This document shows positions 9,269 through 59,367 of a DNA stretch of 64,000 nucleotides, one piece after another. The first letter of the stretch is position 1. Every line of letters begins with the position of its first letter. The notes below the pieces were generated by a model, which was not told the origin of the DNA, ran no database searches, and saw only the letters and a list, made by a program, of their open reading frames with translations. The translations under genes and the position numbers were made by a program. The DNA is from Candidatus Doudnabacteria bacterium (GTDB taxonomy: Bacteria > Patescibacteriota > Doudnabacteria > UBA920 > O2-02-FULL-48-8): assembly GCA_039931165.1 (NCBI GenBank), contig JBDTSL010000002.1, positions 71,134 through 135,133 of the forward strand, in the 5' to 3' direction.

Positions 9269-9532
9269 ATGCATTATCTGTATATTCTCAAAAGCCAATC
9301 CAAAGATTGGTACTATGTAGGAATGACGGACAATCTAAAAAAACGACTAGCACAACATAATTTAGGAAAAACTAAATCAACCAAACCTTATAGGCCATTC
9401 AAGATAGTGTATACTGAAACCTATCAAAGCAAGACTGAATGTAGGAAGCGAGAGTTGTTTATAAAAAATAACCACGCTGCTAAACAAGCTATTGTAGAAA
9501 ACATGTATATGGTCCCATCGTCTAACGGTTAG
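9269..9532 (+). CDS. GIY-YIG nuclease superfamily protein (YhbQ/UPF0213-like)
   Basis: 87 aa; 'YLYILKSQSKDWYYVGMTDNLKKRLAQHNLGK' GIY-YIG motif plus conserved Arg/Glu. Last 7 codons (MVPSSNG) are encoded by the tRNA-Glu 5' end. Confidence 0.7.
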   Translation: MHYLYILKSQSKDWYYVGMTDNLKKRLAQHNLGKTKSTKPYRPFKIVYTETYQSKTECRKRELFIKNNHAAKQAIVENMYMVPSSNG

Positions 9533-9585
9533 GACGCCAGGTTTTCATCCTGGTAATCCGGGTTCGATTCCCGGTGGGATCACCA
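9511..9585 (+). tRNA. tRNA-Glu (anticodon UUC)
   Basis: Cloverleaf: acceptor ggtccca/tgggatc; D-loop tctaacggttagg; anticodon stem ccagg/cctgg with loop ttTTCat; T-arm ccgggttcgattcccgg; encoded CCA. Confidence 0.85.
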
Positions 9586-27047: not shown

Positions 27048-30000
27048 TTATTTGTTTTCCAGTCTACAAATTTCTAAATACGTTTGATTAACCATTTTAT
27101 CAATATTAATAATGGTTTTCTCATCAGAATAATTTTTATGTGCTAGTTTTGAAAAGTCAGATAGCTGTTTATGACGCTGATTGCTCTTAGAATATCGTGG
27201 AATAAAAACCGGAGGGCGAATCTTAAAGCTTCTTGAATCAGAGGAATTCGTAATAAACCTTTGGGTAATGGGCGCATTCAAGATTGCGCAGACAAAGTGT
27301 GCTTCGTCAGTAGAAATAAATTCTCCATCTTCTCTTTCACACATTGAAACAGCGTGATTTTGGAATACCGGGCGCTTTTTACCTCCCCAATCTGTTTCTA
27401 TTTCTTCTACAACCGCTGCCTGCCATTTTGTGTTATCGCGAAAAGTTACATATGTTTTTGCGAAGCTATATGCACCGACGCGCGCTAGTGCATAAAATTC
27501 CTTCTCCCTTTTGCCGATGATCTTCTCGTTATAGGCTGTCTGAGCTTCAATCGCCGCTTTATTATCGAGTATGTATTTAGCTAGATTGGGTGATTTCTTT
27601 CTTAGTTCACTAAGAATGAGTGGAACTCGAGTACTGAAAGATTTTTCATATGGAAAAGGTACGACAAATTCAGAATCTACATTGAGATGATACCTCTCGA
27701 TATTGATACCTTTTATTAAAGGATATACGAACATCTTTTCAAACAAAACATCCTGAGCGGGAATTTTATGTTTTGAATGTTCATTTTGATAGTTGTTTAA
27801 ATAGATCTCATTTTTTCTTTTTGGCATTTCATCGTCTATTTCAAAAAGAAATAGTTCTTGAGGGTAAAACTCAACTCCCTCTCTACCTATATAGCTAGAC
27901 TTACCGGAGATTACCCTGAATTGTTCTAAATCTTTGGATGAATCAGCGTACGAAAAGTTAGTGCTTCCTTTTATGCATTGCCCCATTAATTTATGCTCAA
28001 TCCTAAAAGAATCCCTTACTTCATCATAGCGGATATGTTCGTTAATTTTCTCTATCTTGTTACCAGATTTTTTTATAAAGAATGATACATCAATTCCTTT
28101 TTCGTAATCTGTAACTTTGTCGGAAATAAAATAGGTCAAAAATTTATGTTGTACGGGTTGAAAAGGATGTCCTGCCTTAGTCCAATCAAAGATATTTTGG
28201 AAATATAATCGTTCGCCATTAGAAAGATAGAAGTTTCGGAAACCCTCATAAGTCTGAAGGAGCATTAAGTTTTGTGGCATTAGGAATGCCAAGATGCCAT
28301 TTTTATTCAACCAGTTATCAGCCGCTACGTTAGCGATCAATGCACAGACGTTTAGATTTATGCCGCCAGTTAAACCATCGCCGGAAAATAGGTGGCGTTC
28401 AATACATAGTGATTTAATTCTGTTTCGATAACCTTCTGGTAAATTACGCCAATCAATCCAAGGAGGGTTTCCTACAATTAATTCAAATCTACCAAGGCTC
28501 GCAGTTGTGAGAAAATTAGTAACTATTCGCGCCCAAATACCATTCCATTCATTTTTTTCCAGATCAATAAATTTCTTTGCCAATTCATCAATTTTTTCAC
28601 TTATCTCTGGTATTAGTTCTTTTGAGTTGGCAAGACCCTTTATCTTTGTTGCAACTGCTGACCAGTCTAAAGATTTAATATCGTATTCAATCTCAGTCAT
28701 TGTCTGTGAAAAACGATCAGTATTTGAGACAACGCTTTTAGGTAAAACAATATCAATGGACCCCTTTAAGGTTTTAATGTGGTAACCAAGACACTCAACA
28801 TCTTTTATCTTCTGCGGTTCTGGTACATAAGATGAATCCCCGAGATAAATTGGGATATTAAAACGAATACCTTCTTCAATAAGATGTGCTGTATTTATAA
28901 AATAATTTACTCGACCTGTTAGAACCGACAAGGGATTAAGATCAATTCCTTTAACACGAGATAGTATCTCCTTTATTCTATCTGTACGATTTTCAGATTG
29001 CGTTTCCTCAAGAACTTTCTGAATGCCCACTATCAAAAAAGTACCCGAACCTGATGTTGGATCTAGCATCCTCCAATTATCCTTTTTCTTTAGTTGCGAA
29101 ATTGACTCCAGTACTAAGTTATCAGCTAGCCATGCTGGCGTGTAAAATTCTCCCAAACTATGTCGAACCTTTGAGGGCACAATATGCTGGTATAACTCTT
29201 TGAAGAGATCGTGTGTCCTTACTTGCTCATGCACAAGAACCTTATCCTCATATTTTGAAAGGACTTGTACGACTTCAACAATCTTTTTATGTATCTCTTT
29301 TGACCATTGTTGCTTTGATGCGTACCAAGAGAAATAATCACCCTCCAACAAATTGTTTATACCAATAGTCCTGAAGATCTCACCATCTTCAAGAGAGAGC
29401 ATTTTCATTTGAAGAACGGCTGAGTTGGCTTGAGCTATGTCACCAAATTCAAAAATGTTTTTATTAAAATAGATTTTACTTACCACTTTAAAAGCGATGA
29501 GCTTAACAATCAGAGCGTAGGTCGTTTGCAGAGCATAGAGGGCAAGGTATTCCTCTCTATTTGTCTTTATACCAACATCGATAGCAGTAGACAGTTCTTT
29601 GCGCCGGTCTTGCAGATCTCGTTGTTGAGAAGTGTCATCGTGAGATAGTTTGAAAAGCTCCTGCCACTCTTCAAACAACATTTCAGTCTTTGGTTTCATC
29701 TCATCGAGGAGCGTTTTGTAAAATACCTTTGTTAGTTGTTTTGCGAGATTGTCATCCAAAGGTTCACAAAAATCTCGAATTAAATTATCCGACGTGAGAG
29801 CTATCTGCTCCAATAGGATAATAGTTTTTACTAATCTATCTAATGAAGTTGGCGAAATGTCCATCCAAGCCTCTGTGTAAATTTGGCCACCCTCACTTCG
29901 GATAAACCTGCAAATAACACCATCAGTAACTAGGCCAAGATAATCTGTGGGGTTTTTTACATTTAGACCCCGCAGGTAATCTTCAAGCTGTGAGGAAGCC

Positions 30001-30380
30001 TTTTCTTTAAGTGTCGAAGTTTTTAGCTTGCTAGGATGTTTAAATTCAATAACAAATGCCCCGTACTTACTGTCGATTCTTCCTTGAGCAATATGCCTTT
30101 CTGTTCCGACGAATTTTTCTTTTTCAGGATAATACTTAAGACCAAGTTCGTTATTAATGAAGGAAAAAAGATTTAGTTCAAAACTGCTGACAACGGTTGC
30201 TTCATTTTCAGCAGTTTCGGAGCGCCTTTTAATAGCTAAAACAAGGCCCGGGAGCTTATTTCGATAGTCTGTAGAATATAATTTCTTAGTTACTGATTCA
30301 TTCATGATGTTATCTAACAAAATAGCGGCTAGTTTACCCGTTTTCTGATTTAATTCTAAACCAAATACGGCCAGACTCAA
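27048..30380 (-). CDS. Type IIG/IIL restriction-modification fusion enzyme (MmeI-family-like: PD-(D/E)xK nuclease + gamma-class N6-adenine MTase + TRD)
   Basis: 1110 aa, ~33% GC. N-terminal 'GRIDSKYGAFVIEFKHP' matches the MmeI D-x9-E-x-K nuclease motif; 'GEFYTPAW' motif X; 'MLDPTSGSGTFLI' motif I; 'GNPPWIDW' motif IV; long C-terminal target-recognition region. Confidence 0.7.
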   Translation of the reverse strand: MSLAVFGLELNQKTGKLAAILLDNIMNESVTKKLYSTDYRNKLPGLVLAIKRRSETAENEATVVSSFELNLFSFINNELGLKYYPEKEKFVGTERHIAQGRIDSKYGAFVIEFKHPSKLKTSTLKEKASSQLEDYLRGLNVKNPTDYLGLVTDGVICRFIRSEGGQIYTEAWMDISPTSLDRLVKTIILLEQIALTSDNLIRDFCEPLDDNLAKQLTKVFYKTLLDEMKPKTEMLFEEWQELFKLSHDDTSQQRDLQDRRKELSTAIDVGIKTNREEYLALYALQTTYALIVKLIAFKVVSKIYFNKNIFEFGDIAQANSAVLQMKMLSLEDGEIFRTIGINNLLEGDYFSWYASKQQWSKEIHKKIVEVVQVLSKYEDKVLVHEQVRTHDLFKELYQHIVPSKVRHSLGEFYTPAWLADNLVLESISQLKKKDNWRMLDPTSGSGTFLIVGIQKVLEETQSENRTDRIKEILSRVKGIDLNPLSVLTGRVNYFINTAHLIEEGIRFNIPIYLGDSSYVPEPQKIKDVECLGYHIKTLKGSIDIVLPKSVVSNTDRFSQTMTEIEYDIKSLDWSAVATKIKGLANSKELIPEISEKIDELAKKFIDLEKNEWNGIWARIVTNFLTTASLGRFELIVGNPPWIDWRNLPEGYRNRIKSLCIERHLFSGDGLTGGINLNVCALIANVAADNWLNKNGILAFLMPQNLMLLQTYEGFRNFYLSNGERLYFQNIFDWTKAGHPFQPVQHKFLTYFISDKVTDYEKGIDVSFFIKKSGNKIEKINEHIRYDEVRDSFRIEHKLMGQCIKGSTNFSYADSSKDLEQFRVISGKSSYIGREGVEFYPQELFLFEIDDEMPKRKNEIYLNNYQNEHSKHKIPAQDVLFEKMFVYPLIKGINIERYHLNVDSEFVVPFPYEKSFSTRVPLILSELRKKSPNLAKYILDNKAAIEAQTAYNEKIIGKREKEFYALARVGAYSFAKTYVTFRDNTKWQAAVVEEIETDWGGKKRPVFQNHAVSMCEREDGEFISTDEAHFVCAILNAPITQRFITNSSDSRSFKIRPPVFIPRYSKSNQRHKQLSDFSKLAHKNYSDEKTIINIDKMVNQTYLEICRLENK

Positions 30381-37615: not shown

Positions 37616-40135
37616 TCATATCTCCAATTTTTCCATCTCCGCCCAGTTGGTCCCGGCTTTAGCTTCCGACACGATCGGCACCTTAAGTTTATATGCCGAT
37701 TCCATGATTTTTTTGATCTTTTGGGCGAAGTCTTCGGCTTTTCCCTTCTCGACCTCAAAAACCAGTTCGTCGTGCACGGTCAGGATCATATTCGCCTCCG
37801 GCATTTCTTTTTCAATTTCGATCATGCTCAGCTTCATAATATCCGCGGCCAGGGATTGGATGGGTGTGTTCACGGCTTGCCTCTCGGCAGCCCCCCTGAT
37901 CGCAAAATTCGGAGCTGAAATATCCGGGAAATACCTGATCCTGCCCAAGGCGTTGGTGATGAAGCCCTGCTTGCGGGTGGTTTCGATCAGGCCGTCGATG
38001 TATTTTTTCAATTTGGAAAAAGTCTCAAAATATTTTTTTATATGTTCTCCGGCCTCGGCCCGCGTCAGCTCGGATCTGGAAGAAAGTCCGAACGCCGAAA
38101 CGCCATAAAGCACGCTGAAATTGATGGTTTTGGCGTCCCGGCGCTGATTTGAAGTGACCTTATCTTCAGGGACATTGAAGATCCTGGCCGCGGTTGCCCG
38201 GTGGAAATCCCCGCCGGCTTTGAAAATCTTCATCATTTCATCGTCGCCCGATAAAGACGCGGCAATTCGCAGTTCGATCTGCGAGTAATCCAAAGACAGA
38301 AGTACTTTGCCTTTCTCGGAAATAAAAGATTTGCGGACCTCGTTGCCCAGCTCGGTCCGGATGGGGATGTTCTGCAGGTTCGGATTGATCGAAGACAGCC
38401 TTCCCGTAGCCGCAATGGTCTGGCTGTACGTCGTGTGCACCCGTCCGTCATCTTTGGACACCAGCAAAGGAAGCGAATCTACGTAAGTCGATTTGAGTTT
38501 GGTCAGCTCGCGGTATTCGAAAAGCAGCTCGATGACCGGATGCAGTCCGCGCATTTTCTCCAGTTCTCCTGCCGCGGTCGAAATGCCGCCGGATTTTTTA
38601 TTTTTCTTGAGATTATCCGTGGGGATCCTCAGTTTTTCGAACAAAATTTCCGATAGCTGCTTCGGCGAGGAAATATTGAACTCCTGCCCGGCGAGTTTGT
38701 GAATTTCTTTGATCAGCTGGCCGATCCGCTTTTCCAGCCTGACGCTTAAAGACTCAAGCCAAGCCAGGTCCAGCTTCACGCCGCGGTTTTCCATGGCGAT
38801 CAAAACTTCTGCCAGCGGTTTTTCGATCTCATCATAGATCTTTAGAATATTTTTGGCTTTCAGTTCTTTTTCCAGCTCCTGTGTGCGGGCAAAAATTTCG
38901 GAAAAATCTTCCGGCTCATAGCTTCTCTGCCCAGGATTGGCCAAATACGAAGCAAGAAGCACATCGAATGTCATGGGCAGCAATTCGATGCCCGAGCTCA
39001 AAAATATCTGATGCAAAGTTTTCAGATCAAATCCGATCTTTTCGATCTTCGGGTCCTCTAGAACGTCTTTCAGTTCGGAAACTTTCTCCATAGGGATCTG
39101 ATAAATCTCGTGCTTGCTCCAGCCGATCAATAAGTTATCATCTTTCGCCATCAGCGCGATCTGTTTTTGCTTCTGCAATTTATCCGCATTCCGCAGAGCA
39201 GGAAAATTATTTTTCGGGGGAGCCAAAAGCTCGGACTGGGCGCCTTTGGAAACTTTCGGCAATCTGGAAACCAGAGATTTGATACCTAAATCGGCCAATA
39301 ATTTGATGACTTTGGACTGGTCATAGTCGCCCATTTCTGTTTTTTCAAAATCGAAATCCAACTCGCCTTTTTGATCTATATACGCCAGTTTTTGGGATAA
39401 ATACGCCTTGGGTTTGCCCTCAACCAATTTTTTTATGGTTCCTTCCTTGATTTTCTTTGACCCTCGCTCGGCCGCCTCGTACACACTGTCCAAACTGCCG
39501 AACTCTTTCATCAGATCCATCGCCCCTTTCTCGCCGATGCCCGGCACTCCCGGGATATTGTCGGACAGGTCGCCGCGGATGGCTTTATAGTCCACCCACT
39601 GGCCGGGATGCAAGCCATAAATTTCCACCATTTTATCAATATCAAAAATCTGGATGTCGGAAAACCCCGTTTTGAACCGGTACACCTGCGTATGGTTGTC
39701 GATCAGTTGCAACAGATCCAGATCTCCGGTAACAATGATGCTCAAAACATCTTTCGGCGTTTTGTGCGCGATGATCCCCAGCAGGTCATCCGCTTCAAAT
39801 CCGGCTCTTTCGTAAATCGGGATGTCCAATGCAATTAAAATTTCTTTGATCTTCGGCAGCTGCATCAGAAGTTCGTCCGGCGCTGGCTTGCGCGTGGCTT
39901 TATAATCCGAGGTTAACTTGTCGCGGAAGGTCGGTCCTTTCACATCAAAAGTCACCAGCGCATGACTCGGTTTTATGTCTACCAGAGCCTTGAAGAGCAT
40001 GGAAAAAAATCCGAAAATGGCTCCGGTCGGAAATCCGTCTTTGTTCGACATGGCCGGCAAGGCGTGAAAAGCGCGATGAAACAGGGCATGCCCGTCAATT
40101 AGTAAAAGTTTTCGTTTAAATTCGTTCATAGACAA
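37616..40135 (-). CDS. polA: DNA polymerase I (5'-3' exonuclease + polymerase; reduced 3'-5' exo region)
   Basis: 839 aa; 'LLLIDGHALFHRAFHA' 5' nuclease N-terminus; pol motifs 'DYSQIELR', 'RRDAKTINFSVLYG', 'VHDELVFE'. Confidence 0.9.
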   Translation of the reverse strand: MSMNEFKRKLLLIDGHALFHRAFHALPAMSNKDGFPTGAIFGFFSMLFKALVDIKPSHALVTFDVKGPTFRDKLTSDYKATRKPAPDELLMQLPKIKEILIALDIPIYERAGFEADDLLGIIAHKTPKDVLSIIVTGDLDLLQLIDNHTQVYRFKTGFSDIQIFDIDKMVEIYGLHPGQWVDYKAIRGDLSDNIPGVPGIGEKGAMDLMKEFGSLDSVYEAAERGSKKIKEGTIKKLVEGKPKAYLSQKLAYIDQKGELDFDFEKTEMGDYDQSKVIKLLADLGIKSLVSRLPKVSKGAQSELLAPPKNNFPALRNADKLQKQKQIALMAKDDNLLIGWSKHEIYQIPMEKVSELKDVLEDPKIEKIGFDLKTLHQIFLSSGIELLPMTFDVLLASYLANPGQRSYEPEDFSEIFARTQELEKELKAKNILKIYDEIEKPLAEVLIAMENRGVKLDLAWLESLSVRLEKRIGQLIKEIHKLAGQEFNISSPKQLSEILFEKLRIPTDNLKKNKKSGGISTAAGELEKMRGLHPVIELLFEYRELTKLKSTYVDSLPLLVSKDDGRVHTTYSQTIAATGRLSSINPNLQNIPIRTELGNEVRKSFISEKGKVLLSLDYSQIELRIAASLSGDDEMMKIFKAGGDFHRATAARIFNVPEDKVTSNQRRDAKTINFSVLYGVSAFGLSSRSELTRAEAGEHIKKYFETFSKLKKYIDGLIETTRKQGFITNALGRIRYFPDISAPNFAIRGAAERQAVNTPIQSLAADIMKLSMIEIEKEMPEANMILTVHDELVFEVEKGKAEDFAQKIKKIMESAYKLKVPIVSEAKAGTNWAEMEKLEI

Positions 40136-40958
40136 TATTTTCCATAATTTCTTTTGTATACGGAGTGAAGGAGCTCGGATACCTCCATAGTGAACGGATA
40201 ACCATATACAGATTAAATTCTGTTTTGTATTTCACCAAAAAATCTTCGCCATAACCTCTTATAAAAGAAGTTATTACCTCCAAATCATTTTTATTTTCCG
40301 GATTATCAGTATGAATATACGTTCCATTAGGACTATGGTCAACAATAGTTACTAAATCATAAGGATGATGACCGGAAAAAATTTCTGAACCTTTATCATA
40401 TAGTACAATCTCTTCGTTCTTCCCTAAAGTATTACCAGTATGAAGATCGCAGTGCAGCAAAGAATAAACGATGTTGTTGGAATCTAAAGCGAGAATTCTA
40501 CCATTTACATATTTGGATATATCTTTTAAAAAGCTGGCAGATAAATCACTTTTCTTCTCAATTTGTTCTTCCGTGGCTTTTTGAAAAGCGCCCGATAAAA
40601 AACTCTTCCAATCCAGCTTCTCTTCCTTGCCCTCGCTTGTAATTCTAAAGCAATACTCATAGTGGATCGAGTGCAATTTTCTTACAATTTTTCCAAACCT
40701 TTCATAGTCTTGTGCTGATCCGAAAATCAAACCACCAGCTGAATGCGGTATATACTCTAGTAATAACTGATCATTTTTGAGATTTGGGGCCTCAATAATA
40801 TTCAGTGTAGGAAACCCTCGGTCCTTCAACTCTTTCAAATACACTTTTTCGGTTGCTATCTCTTGAGGTTCTGCAGTTTTTAACACGAACTGTTTACCAT
40901 CAATTTCCACCAATTCTACTTTAGAACTATATGAATCAAATTGTTTTATAACTTTCAT
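40116..40958 (-). CDS. aminoglycoside/choline-kinase-like phosphotransferase (APH fold)
   Basis: 280 aa; Brenner motif 'LLHCDLHTGNTL' (HxDxxxxN) and downstream 'D' region; AT-rich relative to neighbours; stop overlaps the polA start by 20 nt. Confidence 0.6.
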   Translation of the reverse strand: MKVIKQFDSYSSKVELVEIDGKQFVLKTAEPQEIATEKVYLKELKDRGFPTLNIIEAPNLKNDQLLLEYIPHSAGGLIFGSAQDYERFGKIVRKLHSIHYEYCFRITSEGKEEKLDWKSFLSGAFQKATEEQIEKKSDLSASFLKDISKYVNGRILALDSNNIVYSLLHCDLHTGNTLGKNEEIVLYDKGSEIFSGHHPYDLVTIVDHSPNGTYIHTDNPENKNDLEVITSFIRGYGEDFLVKYKTEFNLYMVIRSLWRYPSSFTPYTKEIMENIVYERI

Positions 40959-41182
40959 GGTTAAATCATACCAAAAAACCGCCCTTTGGGCGATTAGATT
41001 ATTTTTTTATATAAAGAATGCGAGCCTTAGAAAAATTTAGTCAGAATTTGAAGAGAGCAACCACCCCGGACTTGATCCGGGGTCCACTTCCTTAATTAAA
41101 CCAGTTGGTGATAATGATGGTAGTGGATCCCAGCTTTCGCTGGGATGGTTATCATTTTTTCTTGAAGCAATTTTTTTTGCGC

Positions 41183-51834: not shown

Positions 51835-52090
51835 ATTTTGGAAAAATCATAATTCCATGTCCTATAATCTTGCCTTTTGAATCTTTTCTTAGTTTACTCT
51901 TAATAACTTGAAAATCTTCTTTGCTTTGTTATTTTATATATCTCATCCACCAACTGCATGGATTTCTGCCACACTATCAAGTCTTTGAAATTATGTATAG
52001 TCATGGTTTTACTTAGGGTGGAGGTTTGAGCGCCCAGCGCGCGGTAGGTTTGAGGTTTCAGCGCCCACCCGAGGGTTCATTCTGAGCGCT

Positions 52091-52145
52091 CCCCCCTGCA
52101 CCCTGACCCCTACTTTCCTGACCCCTCGGCGCTGACCCCTTCCCC
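52091..52145 (-). repeat. G-run cluster (GGGGTCAG x3 plus further G4-6 runs), potential G-quadruplex, minus strand
   Basis: On the + strand: cccccc...ccc..cccc...cccc...cccc..cccc within 55 nt; embedded in a GC-rich 170-bp tract (51980-52150) with gcgccca repeats inside AT-rich DNA. Confidence 0.5.
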
Positions 52146-52152
52146 TGGCAAT

Positions 52153-52515
52153 CTACCCTCTTTTTCGAACGTTTACTTTTATATAACTTATTTTCGGAAT
52201 TCTTTTTAGAAATGCTCTATTTTTTGACATAATAGTTACTTTGGCGACCTTGCGGCCAGAATGCCATCCAAGCTTAGGCGCGCCATTTACTCTCGGAGCG
52301 TTCACAAATTTTGTATGATTACAATTTTTACAGGCTGTAACGAAATTTTCAATTCCATCATATCCACCCTTACTGACTGGAATGATATGGTCTACGTTCA
52401 ATGAACTAGATTTCTTCCGAACACCGCAATAACCGCAAATATATTTATCCCTGATATATACTCGCTTTCTGAGTGCTGGCTGGATAGTCTTTCTTGTTTT
52501 ATCCCTAAATGCCAT
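52153..52515 (-). CDS. HNH endonuclease
   Basis: 120 aa; 'CGYCG...NVDHIIPVSKGGYDGIENFVTACKNCNHTK' canonical HNH with Cys4 zinc site. Confidence 0.8.
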   Translation of the reverse strand: MAFRDKTRKTIQPALRKRVYIRDKYICGYCGVRKKSSSLNVDHIIPVSKGGYDGIENFVTACKNCNHTKFVNAPRVNGAPKLGWHSGRKVAKVTIMSKNRAFLKRIPKISYIKVNVRKRG

Positions 52516-52641
52516 TTGTTTTCTTTAAATTACTTCCTTGGCAATCCTCACCACTTTCGCAATATTTTTTTTCATATTTTAATTATTGAAATTTTAATAA
52601 ATATAATAACAACTTCTGATTAAAGTTCTCAGGCTAAGAAT

Positions 52642-54078
52642 TTATGCTTCCAAATCAGCATTCTCTAATACAATAAGTGCCTTATTCTTATCAACTAAAT
52701 TCAAATTAAATCCTGTTTCGTCATAAGATAATCCATGTACCCACCCAATTGCAGACATTGTGTGCTTAGCGTGTTTTAGATAATTACCTCTCACGTTCTT
52801 TGCTGTTACCCCTTTAGTTTTATCGAACTGTTTATTGAATTGTTTAATAAGTAATTCTTGCTCAGGCTGGGTTAATTTTCTAAACATGAGTACCAAATCA
52901 CGAATAAATAATAAATCAGTCATAGAATCAGCGTGCATTACAAATAGATAAAATTCTTCCAAACTTATATATTCTAGTTCTAACAATAACTTTATTATAA
53001 AACTTACCATATTTACTCCACCCCAAGTCATCATGGATGTGTTATTAGTATAAATATCTTTCTCACAATCCAAATTCTTACAAACAGCAAATTTAATACC
53101 CGATTCTGTTAAGGTTAATTTGGAGTTATCTTCTTTATTCTTATTCTTGAGTAAATGGGTTGCTAATCCCAACCTTATTAAATAATTTTTTTCTTGCCTA
53201 ATAAATAAGTCTCTAGGTCTTGTTTTATGTTTTTTCTTTTTAAATTTAATTTTAAGGCTGTTAAGAATAGTTATTAATTCTTTACTTTTTTTTGATATAT
53301 CAATATAACCCTTTTTACCTAACTTAGACTTAATTAAGATAACAATTTTTTTTAAGTTGGAGACTAAATTATTATCAATGTAGCCTTGGTCTGGAATAAT
53401 GTACCACCCTCTCCAGAGTGAATTTGTAAAATCACTTTTCACCTGTTTTTTCTTTTTAGAAATACCTATCCAAGATTTAATAAAATCAAACAGTACTTTT
53501 GATACTTTTTTGCTTTCGCTAGAAAATTTAACAATTTCAATTTCTTTTTTCACTTCTCGTTTTAGTCGCTCTCTATCCTGCCATTCTTTAAGAATTACAT
53601 CAGTTACTTCAAAACACTTATCATTATCCCAAAGATATTCAAAAAACATTAAAGATTGTTCAACTGTATTGTTTTTATTTGATTCGGGATCAATAAATAT
53701 ACTCGCTTCTACATTCTGCAAAAAAGCCGCTCTACTAAAGTTTGCAGATCCAACCAAACAGACCCAGGCTCCATTTTTTTCGGAAAGCCACATTTTAGGA
53801 TGAAAGGTGCCTGCTTCAAATTTGCATATTTTAACTTCAACTCCAACCCCTATCAACCTTCTAATTGCTGTTGGTTGAGTTATATCCATATCATTGCTAC
53901 ATATAATTCTAATGTCTCCCTTATTGATAATGATGGATTTCAAATCATCAATTAACATATCAACACCACTATTTCTAATATATGCTACAGCCAAAAATAA
54001 CTTATCGCTATCTTTTAATAGTTCCTTTATCTTTTTTAGATGATTGGGTAGAGAAATGATCTGATTTTGAATAAACAT
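52642..54078 (-). CDS. PLD-family (HKD) nuclease domain protein with long uncharacterised C-terminal region
   Basis: 478 aa; N-terminal domain 'LFLAVAYI...HPKMWLSEKNGAWVCLVGSANFSRAAF' = single HxK...GSxN PLD motif (BfiI/NgoFVII/Nuc-like). C-terminal ~300 aa Lys-rich, no match. Confidence 0.6.
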   Translation of the reverse strand: MFIQNQIISLPNHLKKIKELLKDSDKLFLAVAYIRNSGVDMLIDDLKSIIINKGDIRIICSNDMDITQPTAIRRLIGVGVEVKICKFEAGTFHPKMWLSEKNGAWVCLVGSANFSRAAFLQNVEASIFIDPESNKNNTVEQSLMFFEYLWDNDKCFEVTDVILKEWQDRERLKREVKKEIEIVKFSSESKKVSKVLFDFIKSWIGISKKKKQVKSDFTNSLWRGWYIIPDQGYIDNNLVSNLKKIVILIKSKLGKKGYIDISKKSKELITILNSLKIKFKKKKHKTRPRDLFIRQEKNYLIRLGLATHLLKNKNKEDNSKLTLTESGIKFAVCKNLDCEKDIYTNNTSMMTWGGVNMVSFIIKLLLELEYISLEEFYLFVMHADSMTDLLFIRDLVLMFRKLTQPEQELLIKQFNKQFDKTKGVTAKNVRGNYLKHAKHTMSAIGWVHGLSYDETGFNLNLVDKNKALIVLENADLEA

Positions 54079-54087
54079 AAGGACTAT

Positions 54088-55332
54088 TCAATATTTAACC
54101 AAGTATTCATAAATATCTTTTAATAATTCTCGATTGTAGTTTTTCATTCCACCAGCGAGATCACCTTTATACTTAACATTTTTTCCGTTTTCGGCATGAA
54201 TAAAATTATGATCGAAATCTTCAAGATCTATTTCGTTTTCTGTTATATTAAGAATCATATTCCGGTTTCCATTTTTCCCTATTTCGGCATGCTTATTCTT
54301 TTCTAGGTATAATAAATTTTTCCAATGATCAATCATTTTTAGTTCTTCTTTGTTACGAGCTGCATTAAAAGGAACAATATGATGCAATTCAAAACTAATG
54401 GATCGCTTTATGCTGTGTTTCACAAAATATTCTTGTTTAGCTCCTAGGCTTCTGAGCTGAACTCTGACATCAGAAAATAAACCATAACGGCCCGTATTTA
54501 AAGTTAAACTATTACGAGTAATTTCAAAATATACAGTATTTTTTAAAAGGCTAAATATTTGTTGGGACTCGTTCTTCCAATTATGGAAATCGCGGTCGTC
54601 CGTTTTGGATCCAGAAAAATTAACTGGATTGCAATATAGCTTTATTAAATCTATGGCTTTATTTTGCTGCCAACGCTTTAAACTACGATAAGAATCAATG
54701 AGTACAATCTTAAACTCTTTGGGAACCCCTTTTCTGTCATCAGATAAAATAAACATAAACTCATAAATACCTATCGGATCGTTTTTATAATTACTATAAT
54801 ATAAAGTTTCCGCTAACTGAGTTATTTGATCTTGAAATAAAACATCTAGCGCATCGGTGAAAACCTTATATTTGATCGAAATAGATCTGGTTGTGGCGAA
54901 TTCAGTAGCTTTTTTAGTTAACCCGCAATAGAAAATTTGACCTCGTGTCCCAATATCTAAGAGGTTTTCATTTTTATCATATCTATCCAAAAAACCCATT
55001 CTTTGAAAATCAACAAAAAAATTTTTCTTAATAGAATTAACTGTCCCAATTCCTATACTACTTTTAACTTTTTTAACTATTTCATAATACTGTACACAAT
55101 CCCTCTCCCTCGTACCATCATCATCACCTAAGGGTATCCTGAATTTACTATTCCCTACTACACTATGAATTGCCTCAACTATTCCAGATAACCTATCCAA
55201 ATCATATCTATTGTGTTGGGATATATGTAACCCGCGATAATCCTTATCTTTTATTCTTTCAACTATATAATGCAAAAATAAGTTATCTTTGTCTATCGAT
55301 AATATTTCTTTCAGAATATTATTTACGTTCAT
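54088..55332 (-). CDS. HNH-like nuclease domain protein, putative restriction endonuclease
   Basis: 414 aa; C-terminal 'SFELHHIVPFNAARNKEELKMIDHWKNLLYLEKNKH' HNH-type His-Asn-His pattern; start overlaps the upstream MTase stop. Confidence 0.45.
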   Translation of the reverse strand: MNVNNILKEILSIDKDNLFLHYIVERIKDKDYRGLHISQHNRYDLDRLSGIVEAIHSVVGNSKFRIPLGDDDGTRERDCVQYYEIVKKVKSSIGIGTVNSIKKNFFVDFQRMGFLDRYDKNENLLDIGTRGQIFYCGLTKKATEFATTRSISIKYKVFTDALDVLFQDQITQLAETLYYSNYKNDPIGIYEFMFILSDDRKGVPKEFKIVLIDSYRSLKRWQQNKAIDLIKLYCNPVNFSGSKTDDRDFHNWKNESQQIFSLLKNTVYFEITRNSLTLNTGRYGLFSDVRVQLRSLGAKQEYFVKHSIKRSISFELHHIVPFNAARNKEELKMIDHWKNLLYLEKNKHAEIGKNGNRNMILNITENEIDLEDFDHNFIHAENGKNVKYKGDLAGGMKNYNRELLKDIYEYLVKY

Positions 55333-56110
55333 TTTTATTCAAACTCTTGAGACGATTACTGGCTATTTTAACATACTCCTTATCTGAATCATTACCAACA
55401 AAATTACGTCCTAGTTTCGTGGCGGCCACAGCAGTTGTACCGCTACCTATAAAACAATCCAATACTAAATCACCTTTATTAGAACTCGCCAAAACCATCC
55501 TCTCAATCATATCTAAAGGCTTCGGGGTCAAATGAGGCAGCTTCTGTACCTTACCATTAACCTTGTGCTTGTGTCTTTCACTGGTTATATGCCAAACTTC
55601 GCCTACTACCTTGCCTTTTTCATTAGGAAACCATCTTTTCCCGTTTTTTAGGATTCCTCTAACCTTCGCATGTTCAATTCTCTCTGTTGAATCATAGGGT
55701 ACTCTTACATCATTATAATTAAAAGTGTGGTTATGCTCTTTGGTGAAAAAAAGAATAGTTTCTTGACCATTACTGTACCTTTGCTTTGCGCTACCTAAAC
55801 CGTCGCGTTTATCCCATGTTATCCAATTTTGGAATACTAATCTTCTTTTTATTAAATACTCTAAAATAAATGCTGAATTGTATGGTGTATTAAATATATA
55901 AATGCTGGAATCTTTCTTAAGTTTTGGAATGAGTGCGTCTATCCATTTAAATGTAAACTCTAAAAACTTTTTATGGTTTCTAAAAGTATCCCAATCCGCC
56001 TTATGCATATTATAAGGGGGATCTAATATAGCCAAATTAACAGTATTATTATCAATTTGTTTTAAAAAATCAAAGCAATCTAAATTGTAAATTTTGTTAA
56101 TTTTAAGCAT
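55319..56110 (-). CDS. DNA methyltransferase, beta-class amino-MTase (N6-adenine or N4-cytosine)
   Basis: 263 aa; motif IV 'DPPYNM' near N-terminus, motif I 'DLVLDCFIGSGTTAVAA' near C-terminus (beta-class order). Confidence 0.85.
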   Translation of the reverse strand: MLKINKIYNLDCFDFLKQIDNNTVNLAILDPPYNMHKADWDTFRNHKKFLEFTFKWIDALIPKLKKDSSIYIFNTPYNSAFILEYLIKRRLVFQNWITWDKRDGLGSAKQRYSNGQETILFFTKEHNHTFNYNDVRVPYDSTERIEHAKVRGILKNGKRWFPNEKGKVVGEVWHITSERHKHKVNGKVQKLPHLTPKPLDMIERMVLASSNKGDLVLDCFIGSGTTAVAATKLGRNFVGNDSDKEYVKIASNRLKSLNKNERK

Positions 56111-56726
56111 TTATTATAAATTCTTTTAAAATTTCACTCATTGGTTCTAAGTCTGGAACTGCTTTTGTGTAAGCAGGATTAGGCATCCAGCTTGCAAGTG
56201 GAGGTAGCCCAATTGAGTACCCAGCAAGGCATACACTTTTGTCGTCATCTAATAAAAATGCTTGTACATAAAAATCTGCCTTTGAATTTTGTTTTTGATC
56301 AATTAATAAATTAAGGGGCATTCCGTTTAATTTTAGTCCTTTAAATATTTGGTCTAAAGATACTTTATTATTTTCGTAAGTTTTTATATCAATGGTCTTA
56401 TTTTTGATTTTAAACTCAAATCCCTCATCAAATTTCCCAATGACAATCCCATAAGAAAACTCTACTCTTTTATGAAGTATTTGCCATCTGTCTAGGGGTT
56501 CAATCGCTCCAAAATTATTATTGAGGTAACTAAAAATATATTCTAAAAATGCAAGTTCGCCTAAAATTCCCGTCTTAATTTTATTGATATGTGATATTTT
56601 TTCGTAACTACCATAGCCCCGGCGTGGATATTCAAATAAACTCCTTTTCTCGGCCACATACTCGGCCACATGGTTCATCTCGTCTGTTATAGCTATAACT
56701 ATTAGATTACTCTTATTTACAGACAT
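56103..56726 (-). CDS. hypothetical protein sandwiched between the two MTase genes (possible restriction/nicking subunit)
   Basis: 207 aa; overlaps both neighbours (translational coupling); 'GILGELAFLEY' plus Asp/Glu/Lys-rich segments; no confident motif. Confidence 0.4.
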   Translation of the reverse strand: MSVNKSNLIVIAITDEMNHVAEYVAEKRSLFEYPRRGYGSYEKISHINKIKTGILGELAFLEYIFSYLNNNFGAIEPLDRWQILHKRVEFSYGIVIGKFDEGFEFKIKNKTIDIKTYENNKVSLDQIFKGLKLNGMPLNLLIDQKQNSKADFYVQAFLLDDDKSVCLAGYSIGLPPLASWMPNPAYTKAVPDLEPMSEILKEFIINA

Positions 56727-57556
56727 AATTTTAATTTGATAACTTTTTCATAACTCTTGGAGATTTCATAACCAACATATTTCCTATCTAACTCCTTGGC
56801 CACTTTTAATGTAGTCCCGGAACCGACAAATGGGTCTAGAATGAGTTCTCCAACGAAACTATAAAGTCTAACACATCTTTTAACTATTTCCTCTGGCATA
56901 ATTGCTGAATGCTCACCAAAGGCAATGTCCCCTCTGCCTGGGATTGGAATATTCCAGATTTGCTTTGTATATTCTATCCACTCCTTCTGAGTCAATTTGC
57001 TTCGTTCTTTTATTTTATGAGTAAAATTATTTTCAGGGATACCATCCTTGACATAAATTGTAATAAACTCTGTCGTATTCTGGGCATAAAAATTTCTAGG
57101 AAATGGGTAGCTCCCAAACATAAGTCTTTTACTAGGATTTGTTCTATTCCAAATAAATAAATCCATTAAATATAAATTGGTATTTCTTAAAATAGAATGC
57201 TGAATATCGCTATTGATATCAAAAATATGCCTATTATAATGTGTAGTCATGTTCTTTTTCAAAATTGGCATTAAGGGGCTATTTATAGCGATTTTTCCAT
57301 TCGGTTTCAGCACACGATGGCATTCTTCCCAAACTTTTAGCATCTCTTCAATGTATTTATTATATTCCGGAATGTCTCCTATTTGGCCATTTACTTTTTC
57401 CGATGTTTTATTCTTTTGATAACCATCGAGTGAATAATCCTTAATGTTAAAATAGGGCGGGCTGGTGACGATGAGCTGAACAGAATTATCTGGAAGCTCT
57501 TTCATCATTCGCGCGTCCTTAAAGAATACCTTATTTATGTAATCAATTTGTTTCAT
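56717..57556 (-). CDS. DNA methyltransferase, beta-class amino-MTase (second)
   Basis: 279 aa; motif IV 'SPPYFN', motif I 'ILDPFVGSGTT'; ParB-less, MTase only. Confidence 0.85.
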   Translation of the reverse strand: MKQIDYINKVFFKDARMMKELPDNSVQLIVTSPPYFNIKDYSLDGYQKNKTSEKVNGQIGDIPEYNKYIEEMLKVWEECHRVLKPNGKIAINSPLMPILKKNMTTHYNRHIFDINSDIQHSILRNTNLYLMDLFIWNRTNPSKRLMFGSYPFPRNFYAQNTTEFITIYVKDGIPENNFTHKIKERSKLTQKEWIEYTKQIWNIPIPGRGDIAFGEHSAIMPEEIVKRCVRLYSFVGELILDPFVGSGTTLKVAKELDRKYVGYEISKSYEKVIKLKLCL

Positions 57557-57667
57557 CGATACCTACTGACGCTACTATAATGCCATAAAAACTCTAGATT
57601 GACAATAAAAATAGCGGCGTTTTTTCTGCAAAAAGTCAAATTCATTCCCTCAAGATTAAAGCTTAGA

Positions 57668-58234
57668 TCAACCAGTAAAACCAATCGTCCGTGGGTTACT
57701 GGAATATTCCAAATCCTTCAGCAAACTGACGTACTCTTTCAGCATTTCCGCCGGGATGTTTTCCTGCGCCGTATCCAGAATCAGATTATAGTAGGCCATC
57801 ATGTGCTGTCTCGAGGCATTAAACTTATCCCAAAATTTGTCCCCGTAAATTTTCAGGTTGTCTTTCAAGTCCCGCATATTGGATATAGCATCCGCGGATT
57901 TGAGAAACATGGCCATTTTTGACCGCCCCATCCGGACAAGTACATCATCTTTCCGCTTGATCCAATCCTTGATCGCTTTATTTTCGGTGACCATATCCAC
58001 CAGCTCGGCCACACCCGGCCCGAACTCCTGCCGCATTTCTTCCGATGTGTATTTGGTATCCTCGATGGTATCGTGCAGGATCGCTGCGGCGATAACCTCT
58101 TCGTTTGGAGTAAACCTGGCCATCAGCATGGCGACTTCCAAAGGATGGACGATGAACGGTGTTTCCTCATCCTTGCGCAGCTGGCCCTGATGCAGGGTCA
58201 TGGCTTTAATTGTAGCTTTTCTGACTAATCCCAT
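57668..58234 (-). CDS. HD-domain (p)ppGpp hydrolase-like protein (small alarmone hydrolase, RelA/SpoT HD family)
   Basis: 188 aa; 'FIVHPLEVAMLM...AAILHDTIEDT' is the RelA/SpoT hydrolase HD signature. Confidence 0.75.
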   Translation of the reverse strand: MGLVRKATIKAMTLHQGQLRKDEETPFIVHPLEVAMLMARFTPNEEVIAAAILHDTIEDTKYTSEEMRQEFGPGVAELVDMVTENKAIKDWIKRKDDVLVRMGRSKMAMFLKSADAISNMRDLKDNLKIYGDKFWDKFNASRQHMMAYYNLILDTAQENIPAEMLKEYVSLLKDLEYSSNPRTIGFTG

Positions 58235-58482
58235 ATTTTTCCTTTCGTTTAAAAATTAAAAAACTCTTCCCACGAGGAAAGAGAAATAAAAAATCGACCA
58301 TTTATCTTTCCCCGAAGGGCTGAAGTTGGCACCTTCTTTAGGTTATCAATCTAAAGGGTTGCCGGTAGGGTCATAAGGTCAGTTCCTTCGCCTACTCTCT
58401 TGATAGTTAACTATTCAATTGTAAATTAATTATACTCCTATTTCGTAAAATAGTCAAATTTTACCACAATTTCTAATACAAA
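58235..58482 (-). promoter_or_regulatory. long structured 5' leader with intrinsic terminator (riboswitch/attenuator-like) upstream of the HD-hydrolase gene
   Basis: Minus-sense: ...aggagtataat... then multiple helices (cccuucgggg UUCG tetraloop; cuuuag/cuaaag; gaagg/ccuuc pairs), then cucuuuccucgugggaagag+UUUUUU about 45 nt before the ATG. Confidence 0.45.
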
Positions 58483-59367
58483 TTACTTTAGTTGTGGAAA
58501 TTTAATTTTTCTAGGAGCTTTATCCATAATAGTCTGCGGGGTATAAGACCAAAAGTTTATAAAACAATTTGGATTATTTGTACGTAATCCTTTTTTTGTC
58601 TGAAAAGAAATGGGTAAATTGTTTTTTCTACAAGCAGAATAAAATCTTTTAAGAACGTGGAATTTTTCCTCTTCGGCAGGAGTAAAATTAATTTCTTTAT
58701 TAGGTGTCGGAATTAGCTCCAATTGCTTGCTCTTAGTCCGTTCCCATTCGATGAATTTTTCAAAATGACCCCAGGAATAAGATCCTAAACCAGCAAACAA
58801 ATCCGAAACTTGTATTAAGGGCATGGAATGCGATGGGGTAGGAATAATCGATAACAATTTAACTCTCTGAAACTTAGAGACCATCCTAAAAAGATCATTA
58901 ACAAAATTATGTTTTTTACCATTAATACAATCCCACAAAACGTTCCAATCGACTGAGGATTGGTTGTCAGGAAACCATCTCCAAGAATGCCCGTCGATTG
59001 GCCATCTCTGGCTCAGTATTGACGAAATTAAATGATAATACATTCTAACCAAATTGGCATTATCATCTCTGTGTATTATTCCTCTATGCCTTGAGTCCAG
59101 TAAATCCCAAATAATTACATCTATTCTTAGTTTATCCCTGTTTAAAAAAATAAAATCGAGTATTTTTTCTGCTGCAAATCGGTACTTCGCACTGCTCAAT
59201 TTTCCCCATTTAAATTCTTTGCCAACATCCGAATTTTTATAGATTTCTAAAAGACCTGCATTCAATCGTTTAATATGATCACGGTTTACAGTTAAAACTG
59301 CTAAACTATTGAAGCGGCCCTGATGATGTTTCGAATCATCCGAAAAAGCAAAATGTGTTGGTAGCAT
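58483..59367 (-). CDS. DUF3800-like protein
   Basis: 294 aa; N-terminal 'FAFSDDSKHHQGRFNSLAVL' and C-terminal 'LIQVSDLFAGL' resemble the DUF3800 D...S / Q(V/L)ADL.A signature. Confidence 0.5.
   Translation of the reverse strand: MLPTHFAFSDDSKHHQGRFNSLAVLTVNRDHIKRLNAGLLEIYKNSDVGKEFKWGKLSSAKYRFAAEKILDFIFLNRDKLRIDVIIWDLLDSRHRGIIHRDDNANLVRMYYHLISSILSQRWPIDGHSWRWFPDNQSSVDWNVLWDCINGKKHNFVNDLFRMVSKFQRVKLLSIIPTPSHSMPLIQVSDLFAGLGSYSWGHFEKFIEWERTKSKQLELIPTPNKEINFTPAEEEKFHVLKRFYSACRKNNLPISFQTKKGLRTNNPNCFINFWSYTPQTIMDKAPRKIKFPQLK

Follow-up and report, generated by a model that had tools for sequence, protein, structure and literature searches.

The window analyzed here is a 64,000-nucleotide (nt) stretch of a Candidatus Doudnabacteria genome (assembly GCA_039931165.1, contig JBDTSL010000002.1, positions 71,134 to 135,133 of the forward strand). 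It contains a cluster of six minus-strand genes at positions 52153-57556, and we consider it likely that this locus was acquired horizontally and is an MboII-type Type IIS restriction-modification (R-M) system in which three independent nucleases are carried on one methyltransferase pair. In order, the genes are the methyltransferase gene M2, x207 (named for its product of 207 amino acids, aa), the methyltransferase gene M1, the endonuclease gene R, a gene for a protein with an N-terminal PLD domain (the PLD protein), and a small HNH gene. The system is of a known kind and its core is ordinary, and its triple-nuclease configuration is rare. This reading is based on the gene identities, folds, and catalytic residues of the encoded proteins, their orthology with the MboII locus, homology between two of the recognition domains, and the patterns in which the genes occur together in related loci.

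Methyltransferases and the MboII core

M1 (55319..56110, 263 aa) is a beta-class N6-adenine DNA methyltransferase and the ortholog of M1.MboII. It matches the M.MboIIA structure (PDB 1G60) across residues 1-257 with E=4.6e-123, and it carries DPPY, a motif of the N6-methyladenine (m6A) type. M2 (56717..57556, 279 aa) is a beta-class N4-cytosine DNA methyltransferase and the ortholog of M2.MboII, with matches to PF01555 (4.6e-45) and to the PADLOC MTase_II model PDLC03353 (4.4e-87). An invariant SPPY (TSPPY) near its N-terminus is of the N4-methylcytosine (m4C) type, and N4-cytosine methyltransferases are among the protein's best PDB matches. Both proteins belong to the PF01555 beta class and have FxGSGTT close to the C-terminus. 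An initial annotation of this stretch had called two methyltransferases of this class and had placed an N-terminal PLD domain and an HNH domain in the proteins of 478 aa and 120 aa, respectively; all of these calls were correct.

The M2 alignment was scanned against 185,579 species genomes, which yielded 327 relatives, and 80 loci were kept. The Moraxella bovis type strain is represented among them (L078) by a locus with M2 (273 aa), an open reading frame (ORF) of 217/218 aa, M1 (260/264 aa), and R (416 aa). Compared with the window in the same order, identities are 68% for M2, 26% for x207 (E=7e-14), 64% for M1, and 33% for R (E=1e-56). By exact look-up, R of this locus is UniProt T2M2_MORBO and M1 is the 1G60/P23192 sequence; M2 shares a 90%-identity cluster with the deposited mboIIM2 product AIT76554.1. 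Judged from these comparisons, the first four genes (M2, x207, M1, and R) are a one-to-one counterpart of the catalogued MboII Type IIS locus, and the initial impression of a layout outside standard R-M organization does not hold for them.

In the MboII and HpyAII systems, M1 methylates GAAGA (m6A) and M2 methylates TCTTC (m4C) (PMC7494987, PMC3990576), and action on TCTTC is described for both M2.MboII and M2.HpyAII (PMC7494987, PMC4417176). The window M1 would be expected to act on the GAAGA strand and M2 on the TCTTC strand, and the specificity of the system is probably GAAGA/TCTTC. Between loci, M1 and M2 are 54-84% identical whichever nuclease accompanies them, and the nearest neighbors of methyltransferases linked to a PLD gene or to x207 only are R-linked, at 65-91% identity. 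For example, M1 and M2 of a PLD locus (L036) are 80% and 84% identical to those of an R locus (L018), and M2 of an x207 locus (L089) is 91% identical to that of an R locus (L091). The methyltransferases are thus not split by nuclease partner, which points to one specificity with swapped nucleases. Fusions also occur among these genes: M1 and R form a single 674-aa protein in L061 (8823-10844), and M2 and M1 form a single 555-aa protein in L087 (7974-9638).

Predicted restriction endonucleases of the locus

R.MboII has been placed in the HNH superfamily (PMC2441816, PMC4081073). R of the window (54088..55332, 414 aa) is a Type IIS endonuclease of the R.MboII family, with an N-terminal recognition domain at about residues 30-279 and a C-terminal HNH motif. 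It had been described at first as HNH-like, and this is borne out by its motif only; Pfam gave no significant match, but the PADLOC REase_II model PDLC03506 matched along its full length (2.6e-79). The motif reads ELHHIVPF..N..H, with HH at 317-318 and N and H downstream, and it is equivalent to the HpyAII residues H328/H329/N350/H359, which were confirmed as catalytic by mutagenesis (PMC7494987). HpyAII cuts both strands 8/7 nt downstream, favors two-site substrates, and is described with M1, M2, and R only (PMC7494987).

The PLD protein (52642..54078, 478 aa) has a Nuc/BfiI-type PLD domain at about residues 1-160 (PF13091, PF09565), with invariant H93-x-K95, S111, N113, and E124 and a single HxK(x)nN(x)nE motif per chain. 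The remainder was first taken for a C-terminus of 300 aa without known function; it contains instead a Type IIS recognition domain (about residues 220-460), homologous to that of R.MboII-type enzymes. This region is helical and of winged-helix type, matches the recognition domains of N.BspD6I, BpuJI, and FokI, and has no RE_NgoFVII_C or B3 match in Pfam. A profile-profile comparison of 51 R.MboII-type and 73 PLD-type sequences aligned residues 30-279 of R with residues 220-460 of the PLD protein at an hhalign probability of 96.4% (E=1.1e-9); four control profile comparisons gave probabilities of ≤0.3%. On this alignment the two recognition domains are homologous, and its domain composition identifies the PLD protein as a restriction enzyme of Type IIS. 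Its predicted target is GAAGA or a very similar site, and by analogy with BfiI its cleavage is probably metal-independent.

Further enzymes link the two families. Following M2-M1, L047 (9615-10811) and L034 (3381-4568) encode enzymes that match the recognition part of both the R and the PLD profiles, carry the shared motif in the form YRGWHLVQ, and end in a zinc-type HNH_2 domain (PF13391); one lies above and one just below the cut-off of Pfam RE_AlwI. Together with the homology between R and the PLD protein, these bridging enzymes indicate from sequence that a single recognition module is fused to at least three cleavage modules, namely MboII-type HNH, HNH_2, and PLD.

Other assignments were considered for the PLD protein and rejected. 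Its matches to the PADLOC models for DISARM DrmC, PbeA, and Type IV were weak and partial (1.9e-11 to 0.03) and, for DISARM, Pbe, Zorya (ZacB), and Type IV alike, did not extend beyond the generic PLD domain; the neighboring ORFs include no drmA/B, pbe, or zor partners. Membership in the BfiI family proper was also rejected, given a recognition domain that is winged-helix and not B3-like, and likeness to BfiI is probable in mode of action only.

The product of x207 (56103..56726, 207 aa) belongs to a rare, unnamed family of small single-domain PD-(D/E)XK nucleases and is a putative additional restriction endonuclease. It has no match in Pfam, PADLOC, NCBIfam, PHROGs, or PDB sequences. The family is small: a first search gave 36 homologs, and 1.84 billion representatives contained only 55 clusters of it at the 50% identity level. 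Residues E57, D100, D113-x-K115 (D113-I-K115), Q146, and Q155 are invariant in 34 family sequences, and the core of alpha-beta-beta-beta-alpha-beta order is that of the PD-(D/E)XK fold. The protein is a bare catalytic core of about 200 aa with no separate recognition domain, and its best structural matches include Holliday-junction resolvases (Hjc), a homing endonuclease, and restriction enzymes. The 217-aa M. bovis counterpart (WP_078274192.1) keeps the catalytic motifs and is annotated as hypothetical or uncharacterized in many strains; the whole family is hypothetical in all sources. A tblastn search of 72,556 plasmids with x207 and the PLD protein gave no match.

Nuclease combinations in related loci

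Hidden Markov models were built for each family and run on all fetched loci, and about 120 related loci were compared. The 80 M2-anchored genome loci include 50 with M2-M1-R, seven with M2-M1-PLD, four with x207 and R (M. bovis included), two with M2-x207, one with M2-M1-R-PLD, and one with all three nucleases. The last is from a Methanofastidiosum archaeon and has the order M2-x207-M1-PLD-R. Look-ups anchored on the PLD protein gave M2-M1-PLD or M2-PLD-M1, in both cases without R or x207, and the x207-anchored metagenome census added M2-M1-PLD-x207 and another clean M2-x207 locus. All seven combinations of R, PLD, and x207 are therefore seen with MboII-type methyltransferases. The M2-M1 pair is maintained in most census loci whichever nuclease comes next. 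Elsewhere the PLD protein is usually the sole nuclease beside this pair, R and PLD without x207 are found in one Omnitrophota contig (L054), and the triple configuration is limited to the window and one archaeal lineage.

The x207 gene stood beside MboII-type methyltransferases in 21 of 21 informative loci of the x207-anchored metagenome scan. It adjoins M2 in most loci and is directly beside R in two (L116, L117). Three M2-x207 pairs from unrelated lineages (L005, L089, L104) have flanks of 5-7 kb without M1, R, or PLD; in L089, the flanks hold housekeeping genes and a distinct 5-methylcytosine (m5C)/NgoFVII-like system. Because all seven combinations occur, the nucleases appear to be independent, stackable modules rather than subunits, and the distribution of their genes supports alternative and additive modules on a shared modification platform. 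The initial annotation had allowed for a known Type IIS system next to an unrelated PLD gene; the core is indeed known, but the PLD protein is better described as an alternative enzyme for the same methyltransferase pair.

Some of these loci are in a defense context or in one that may be mobile. Metagenome contigs L007-L010 (for example, L007 2-1126) carry x207-M2-M1-R directly 3' of a gene with a TniQ domain (PF06527, 1.5e-30), which suggests that the cluster is cargo of a Tn7-like transposon. In Methanofastidiosum, the five-gene cluster (L001/L003/L004, 468-4831) is beside McrB/McrC and an AAA_15 ATPase gene and is inside a larger defense island.

Proposed mechanism and alternative explanations

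From these data we infer a system in which M1 (m6A, GAAGA) and M2 (m4C, TCTTC) would hemi-methylate the two strands of a common site and thereby protect host DNA, and three nucleases of different catalytic chemistry would attack unmodified DNA. R would recognize the site with its N-terminal winged-helix domain and cut downstream with its HNH site. The PLD enzyme would use its homologous domain to bind this site or one much like it and, as described for BfiI (PMC2853115, PMC4081073), might act as a dimer through its PLD domains, with a single metal-independent active site that cuts the strands in turn. The x207 protein would be a PD-(D/E)XK nuclease of the Mg-dependent type, genetically tied to M2, and the stand-alone M2-x207 pairs suggest that the m4C mark blocks it. 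The same methylation would then protect against all three enzymes. Any one nuclease could serve alone, and the window locus would stack all three. It is speculative that stacking brings an advantage, for instance by keeping the system robust when anti-restriction proteins are present or metal is limiting. A more specific form of this proposal is tentative: the larger enzymes would be isospecific products of one GAAGA-reading module joined to HNH, HNH_2, or PLD, accompanied by x207 as a minimal nuclease, and the stack would have been selected and not be an accident of insertion.

Several observations weigh against this interpretation. Specificity is drawn from the 64-68% identity of the methyltransferases to those of M. 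bovis, which makes shared specificity likely, not certain. The window shows no avoidance of GAAGA (174 sites observed compared with 149 +/- 14 expected), a neutral result that lends no support. Loci with M2 and x207 only could in principle be decaying remnants. The Omnitrophota contig ends within its PLD gene, and some nuclease combinations rest on one to three loci.

Two or three separate, adjacent R-M systems of differing specificities could also produce such a cluster, with M2 and x207 as one system, M1 and R as another, and the PLD protein as an orphan or Type IV enzyme. R-M genes are often clustered in defense islands, M2 and x207 do exist as pairs on their own, and the PLD domain has the weak PADLOC matches to the Type IV model, DrmC, and PbeA. 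However, those matches are limited to the generic PLD domain, and the DISARM and Pbe partners are absent. The M1 and M2 enzymes of M. bovis and H. pylori are parts of one MboII/HpyAII system and modify opposite strands of a single target (PMC7494987, PMC3990576), and the M2-M1 pairing holds in most census loci despite the changing nuclease. The PLD protein is the sole nuclease in M2-M1-PLD operons and has a recognition domain homologous to that of R.MboII; if it had that specificity and depended on modification, its presence beside M1 and M2 would be lethal. We regard separate systems as unlikely.

The initial annotation noted a resemblance to two-subunit Type IIS enzymes like BtsI or BsrDI. 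In a BtsI/BsrDI/BspD6I-like form, x207 would be a non-specific small catalytic subunit that is recruited by R, by the PLD protein, or by both for the second-strand cut. This would suit a bare PD-(D/E)XK core with no recognition domain of its own, one that is translationally coupled within the operon and lies directly beside R in L116 and L117. The BspD6I small subunit is also comparable in size to x207. Obligate partnership is contradicted by the distribution of the genes: among the 80 M2-anchored loci, R is without x207 in 50, where it is the only nuclease, and PLD is alone in seven, and x207 is with M2 alone in three unrelated lineages, where no R, PLD, or M1 is found within 5-7 kb. In most loci the neighbor of x207 is M2, not a nuclease. 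HpyAII, moreover, cuts both strands with no such partner reported (PMC7494987). A heteromer is decidedly unlikely.

An accessory role of x207 in repair or regulation, as a Vsr-like or resolvase-like companion of the m4C methyltransferase, is very improbable: Hjc and a homing endonuclease are among its best structural matches and every source annotates the family as hypothetical, but its association with MboII-type methyltransferases is strict and exclusive (all 21 informative loci), the stand-alone M2-x207 pair has the classic methyltransferase-plus-nuclease layout, many Type II restriction enzymes are likewise built on a minimal Hjc-like core, and no repair need specific to m4C is known.

Comparison with known systems

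MboII of M. bovis is like the window in its methyltransferase pair, in its HNH-type R family, and in the M2-x-M1-R order, which includes the small ORF. It is without a PLD nuclease, whereas the window has a PLD gene directly after R. The intervening ORFs are also distant from each other at only 26% identity, and the window host is a bacterium of the candidate phyla radiation (Doudnabacteria), in which the genes form a low-GC island. HpyAII of H. pylori, an isoschizomer of MboII, has been described as M1, M2, and R only (PMC7494987).

The PLD protein shares the Nuc-like PLD catalytic domain of BfiI/BmrI, and outside this domain no sequence relationship to those enzymes was detectable. BfiI has a B3-like pseudobarrel for recognition (PMC3973309) and the target ACTGGG, whereas the window protein has a winged-helix array of the FokI/BspD6I/BpuJI type and the predicted target GAAGA. 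FokI, the N.BspD6I/AlwI family, and BpuJI have a C-terminal PD-(D/E)XK cleavage domain; in families of the window type, the FokI-like recognition domain is joined to an N-terminal PLD domain, to HNH, or to HNH_2. BtsI, BsrDI, and BspD6I are similar to the window locus in having several nuclease genes per Type IIS operon, one of them for a bare PD-(D/E)XK protein of about 200 aa. Their nucleases form an obligate pair, in contrast to the window families, each of which occurs alone with methyltransferases.

A 2014 review notes at least 40 putative restriction enzymes of the PLD type, the organization of which was unknown (PMC4081073). A PLD enzyme with an MboII-type recognition domain was not found in the searched literature, nor was the x207 family or its presence in the M. 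bovis locus; REBASE was outside this search and may list some of these as putative enzymes. Nor did the searched literature yield a description of nucleases being freely combined around a single methyltransferase pair. If the proposed interpretation is correct, the locus is an example of natural domain shuffling, in which one recognition module is placed on HNH, HNH_2, or PLD beside the same methyltransferases, parallel to engineering with the FokI and BmrI cleavage domains. It would predict a metal-independent enzyme that cuts at GAAGA, and it would mean that the long-studied MboII locus contains a conserved and catalytically intact nuclease gene that is hypothetical in every database. Several restriction enzymes that differ in chemistry could then operate under a single methylation specificity, which bears on the resistance of R-M systems to anti-restriction proteins and on competition or merging between R-M systems. 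The understanding of how Type IIS R-M systems work is unchanged by this locus.

Genomic context of the locus

The six minus-strand ORFs were reproduced with exactly the coordinates and lengths first assigned to them, and each has highly significant homologs or domain matches, which excludes chance ORFs and identifies them as genuine genes. M2/x207, x207/M1, and M1/R overlap by 10, 8, and 14 nt, and R and the PLD gene are separated by 9 nt; these junctions give the five genes an operon structure. The gap between the PLD gene and the HNH gene is 126 nt. GC content is 30-37% in the six genes (26-33% at third codon positions), compared with about 45-50% in flanking genes, of which the adjacent HD-domain, TspO, and Cas4-like genes have 45-48%, and a window mean of about 48%. 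The six-gene locus is a horizontally acquired low-GC cluster. No direct or inverted repeats that bound the island were found, and the sole tRNA of the window is far from it (9511-9585).

A candidate promoter (57577..57605, minus strand; TTGTCA-17-CATTAT, TG-extended), identified by consensus match only, sits in the 111-nt spacer 5' of M2. No terminator-like site was predicted between the upstream HD-domain gene and M2, so read-through from upstream is possible. This HD gene (57668-58234, minus strand) encodes a 188-aa HD_4/SpoT-like protein and is preceded by a SAM-I riboswitch at 58299-58409 on the minus strand (RF00162, 56.8 bits against a gathering score of 44.4, E=3e-11), which is adjoined by a terminator-like hairpin (58283-58264, minus strand). 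An HD-domain gene is an unusual target for S-box control. The R-M operon begins 111 nt 3' of it, and read-through that depends on S-adenosylmethionine (SAM) into two genes for SAM-using methyltransferases may occur.

Farther upstream, a DUF3800 gene (58483-59367, minus strand; 294 aa, 34% GC) matches the PADLOC candidate defense family PDC-M04A (1.5e-13), and this gene and the R-M cluster make up a small defense island that is split by the native HD gene. A separate low-GC island (27048-30380, minus strand, 35-39% GC) lies beside rpoB; its 1110-aa product combines Eco57I and N6_Mtase domains and is probably a restriction-modification fusion of Type IIG/IIL. The interval 39000-41000 has GC content down to 41% and a strongly negative GC skew.

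At the downstream end of the cluster, the stand-alone HNH endonuclease gene (52153..52515, 120 aa; PF01844, 1.5e-13) is a neighbor in the low-GC stretch and is outside the conserved module; the spacer between it and the PLD gene has 24% GC. A composite restriction module had initially been proposed for all six genes. Five of them do recur together in Methanofastidiosum, but the HNH gene is absent from all of the about 120 related loci. Sixteen close homologs occur in unrelated contexts, twice beside small PDDEXK_3 genes, and the protein matches many phage HNH PHROGs. We rejected it as a component of the system on the grounds of its absence from related loci and the unrelated contexts of its homologs; it is an independent neighbor, possibly mobile. 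In L097 and L098 (5001-5748), homologs of this protein are encoded by genes that overlap a 129-aa PDDEXK_3 gene, and a similar gene is nearby in L096 (1246-1635), so small HNH and PD-(D/E)XK genes may be a recurring pair.

Just 3' of the HNH stop codon, a G-rich stretch (52103-52140, minus strand) contains three exact copies of AGGGGTCAG at a spacing of 14-15 nt, with one further exact copy in the whole 64 kb. A short ORF follows at about 51900-52003 (minus strand) and begins with MTIHNFKDLIVWQKSMQLVDEIYKIT; it may be the N-terminal remnant, in truncated form, of a four-helix-bundle protein of the 23S rRNA intervening-sequence kind. The AGGGGTCAG repeats and this short ORF may mark the border of the island.

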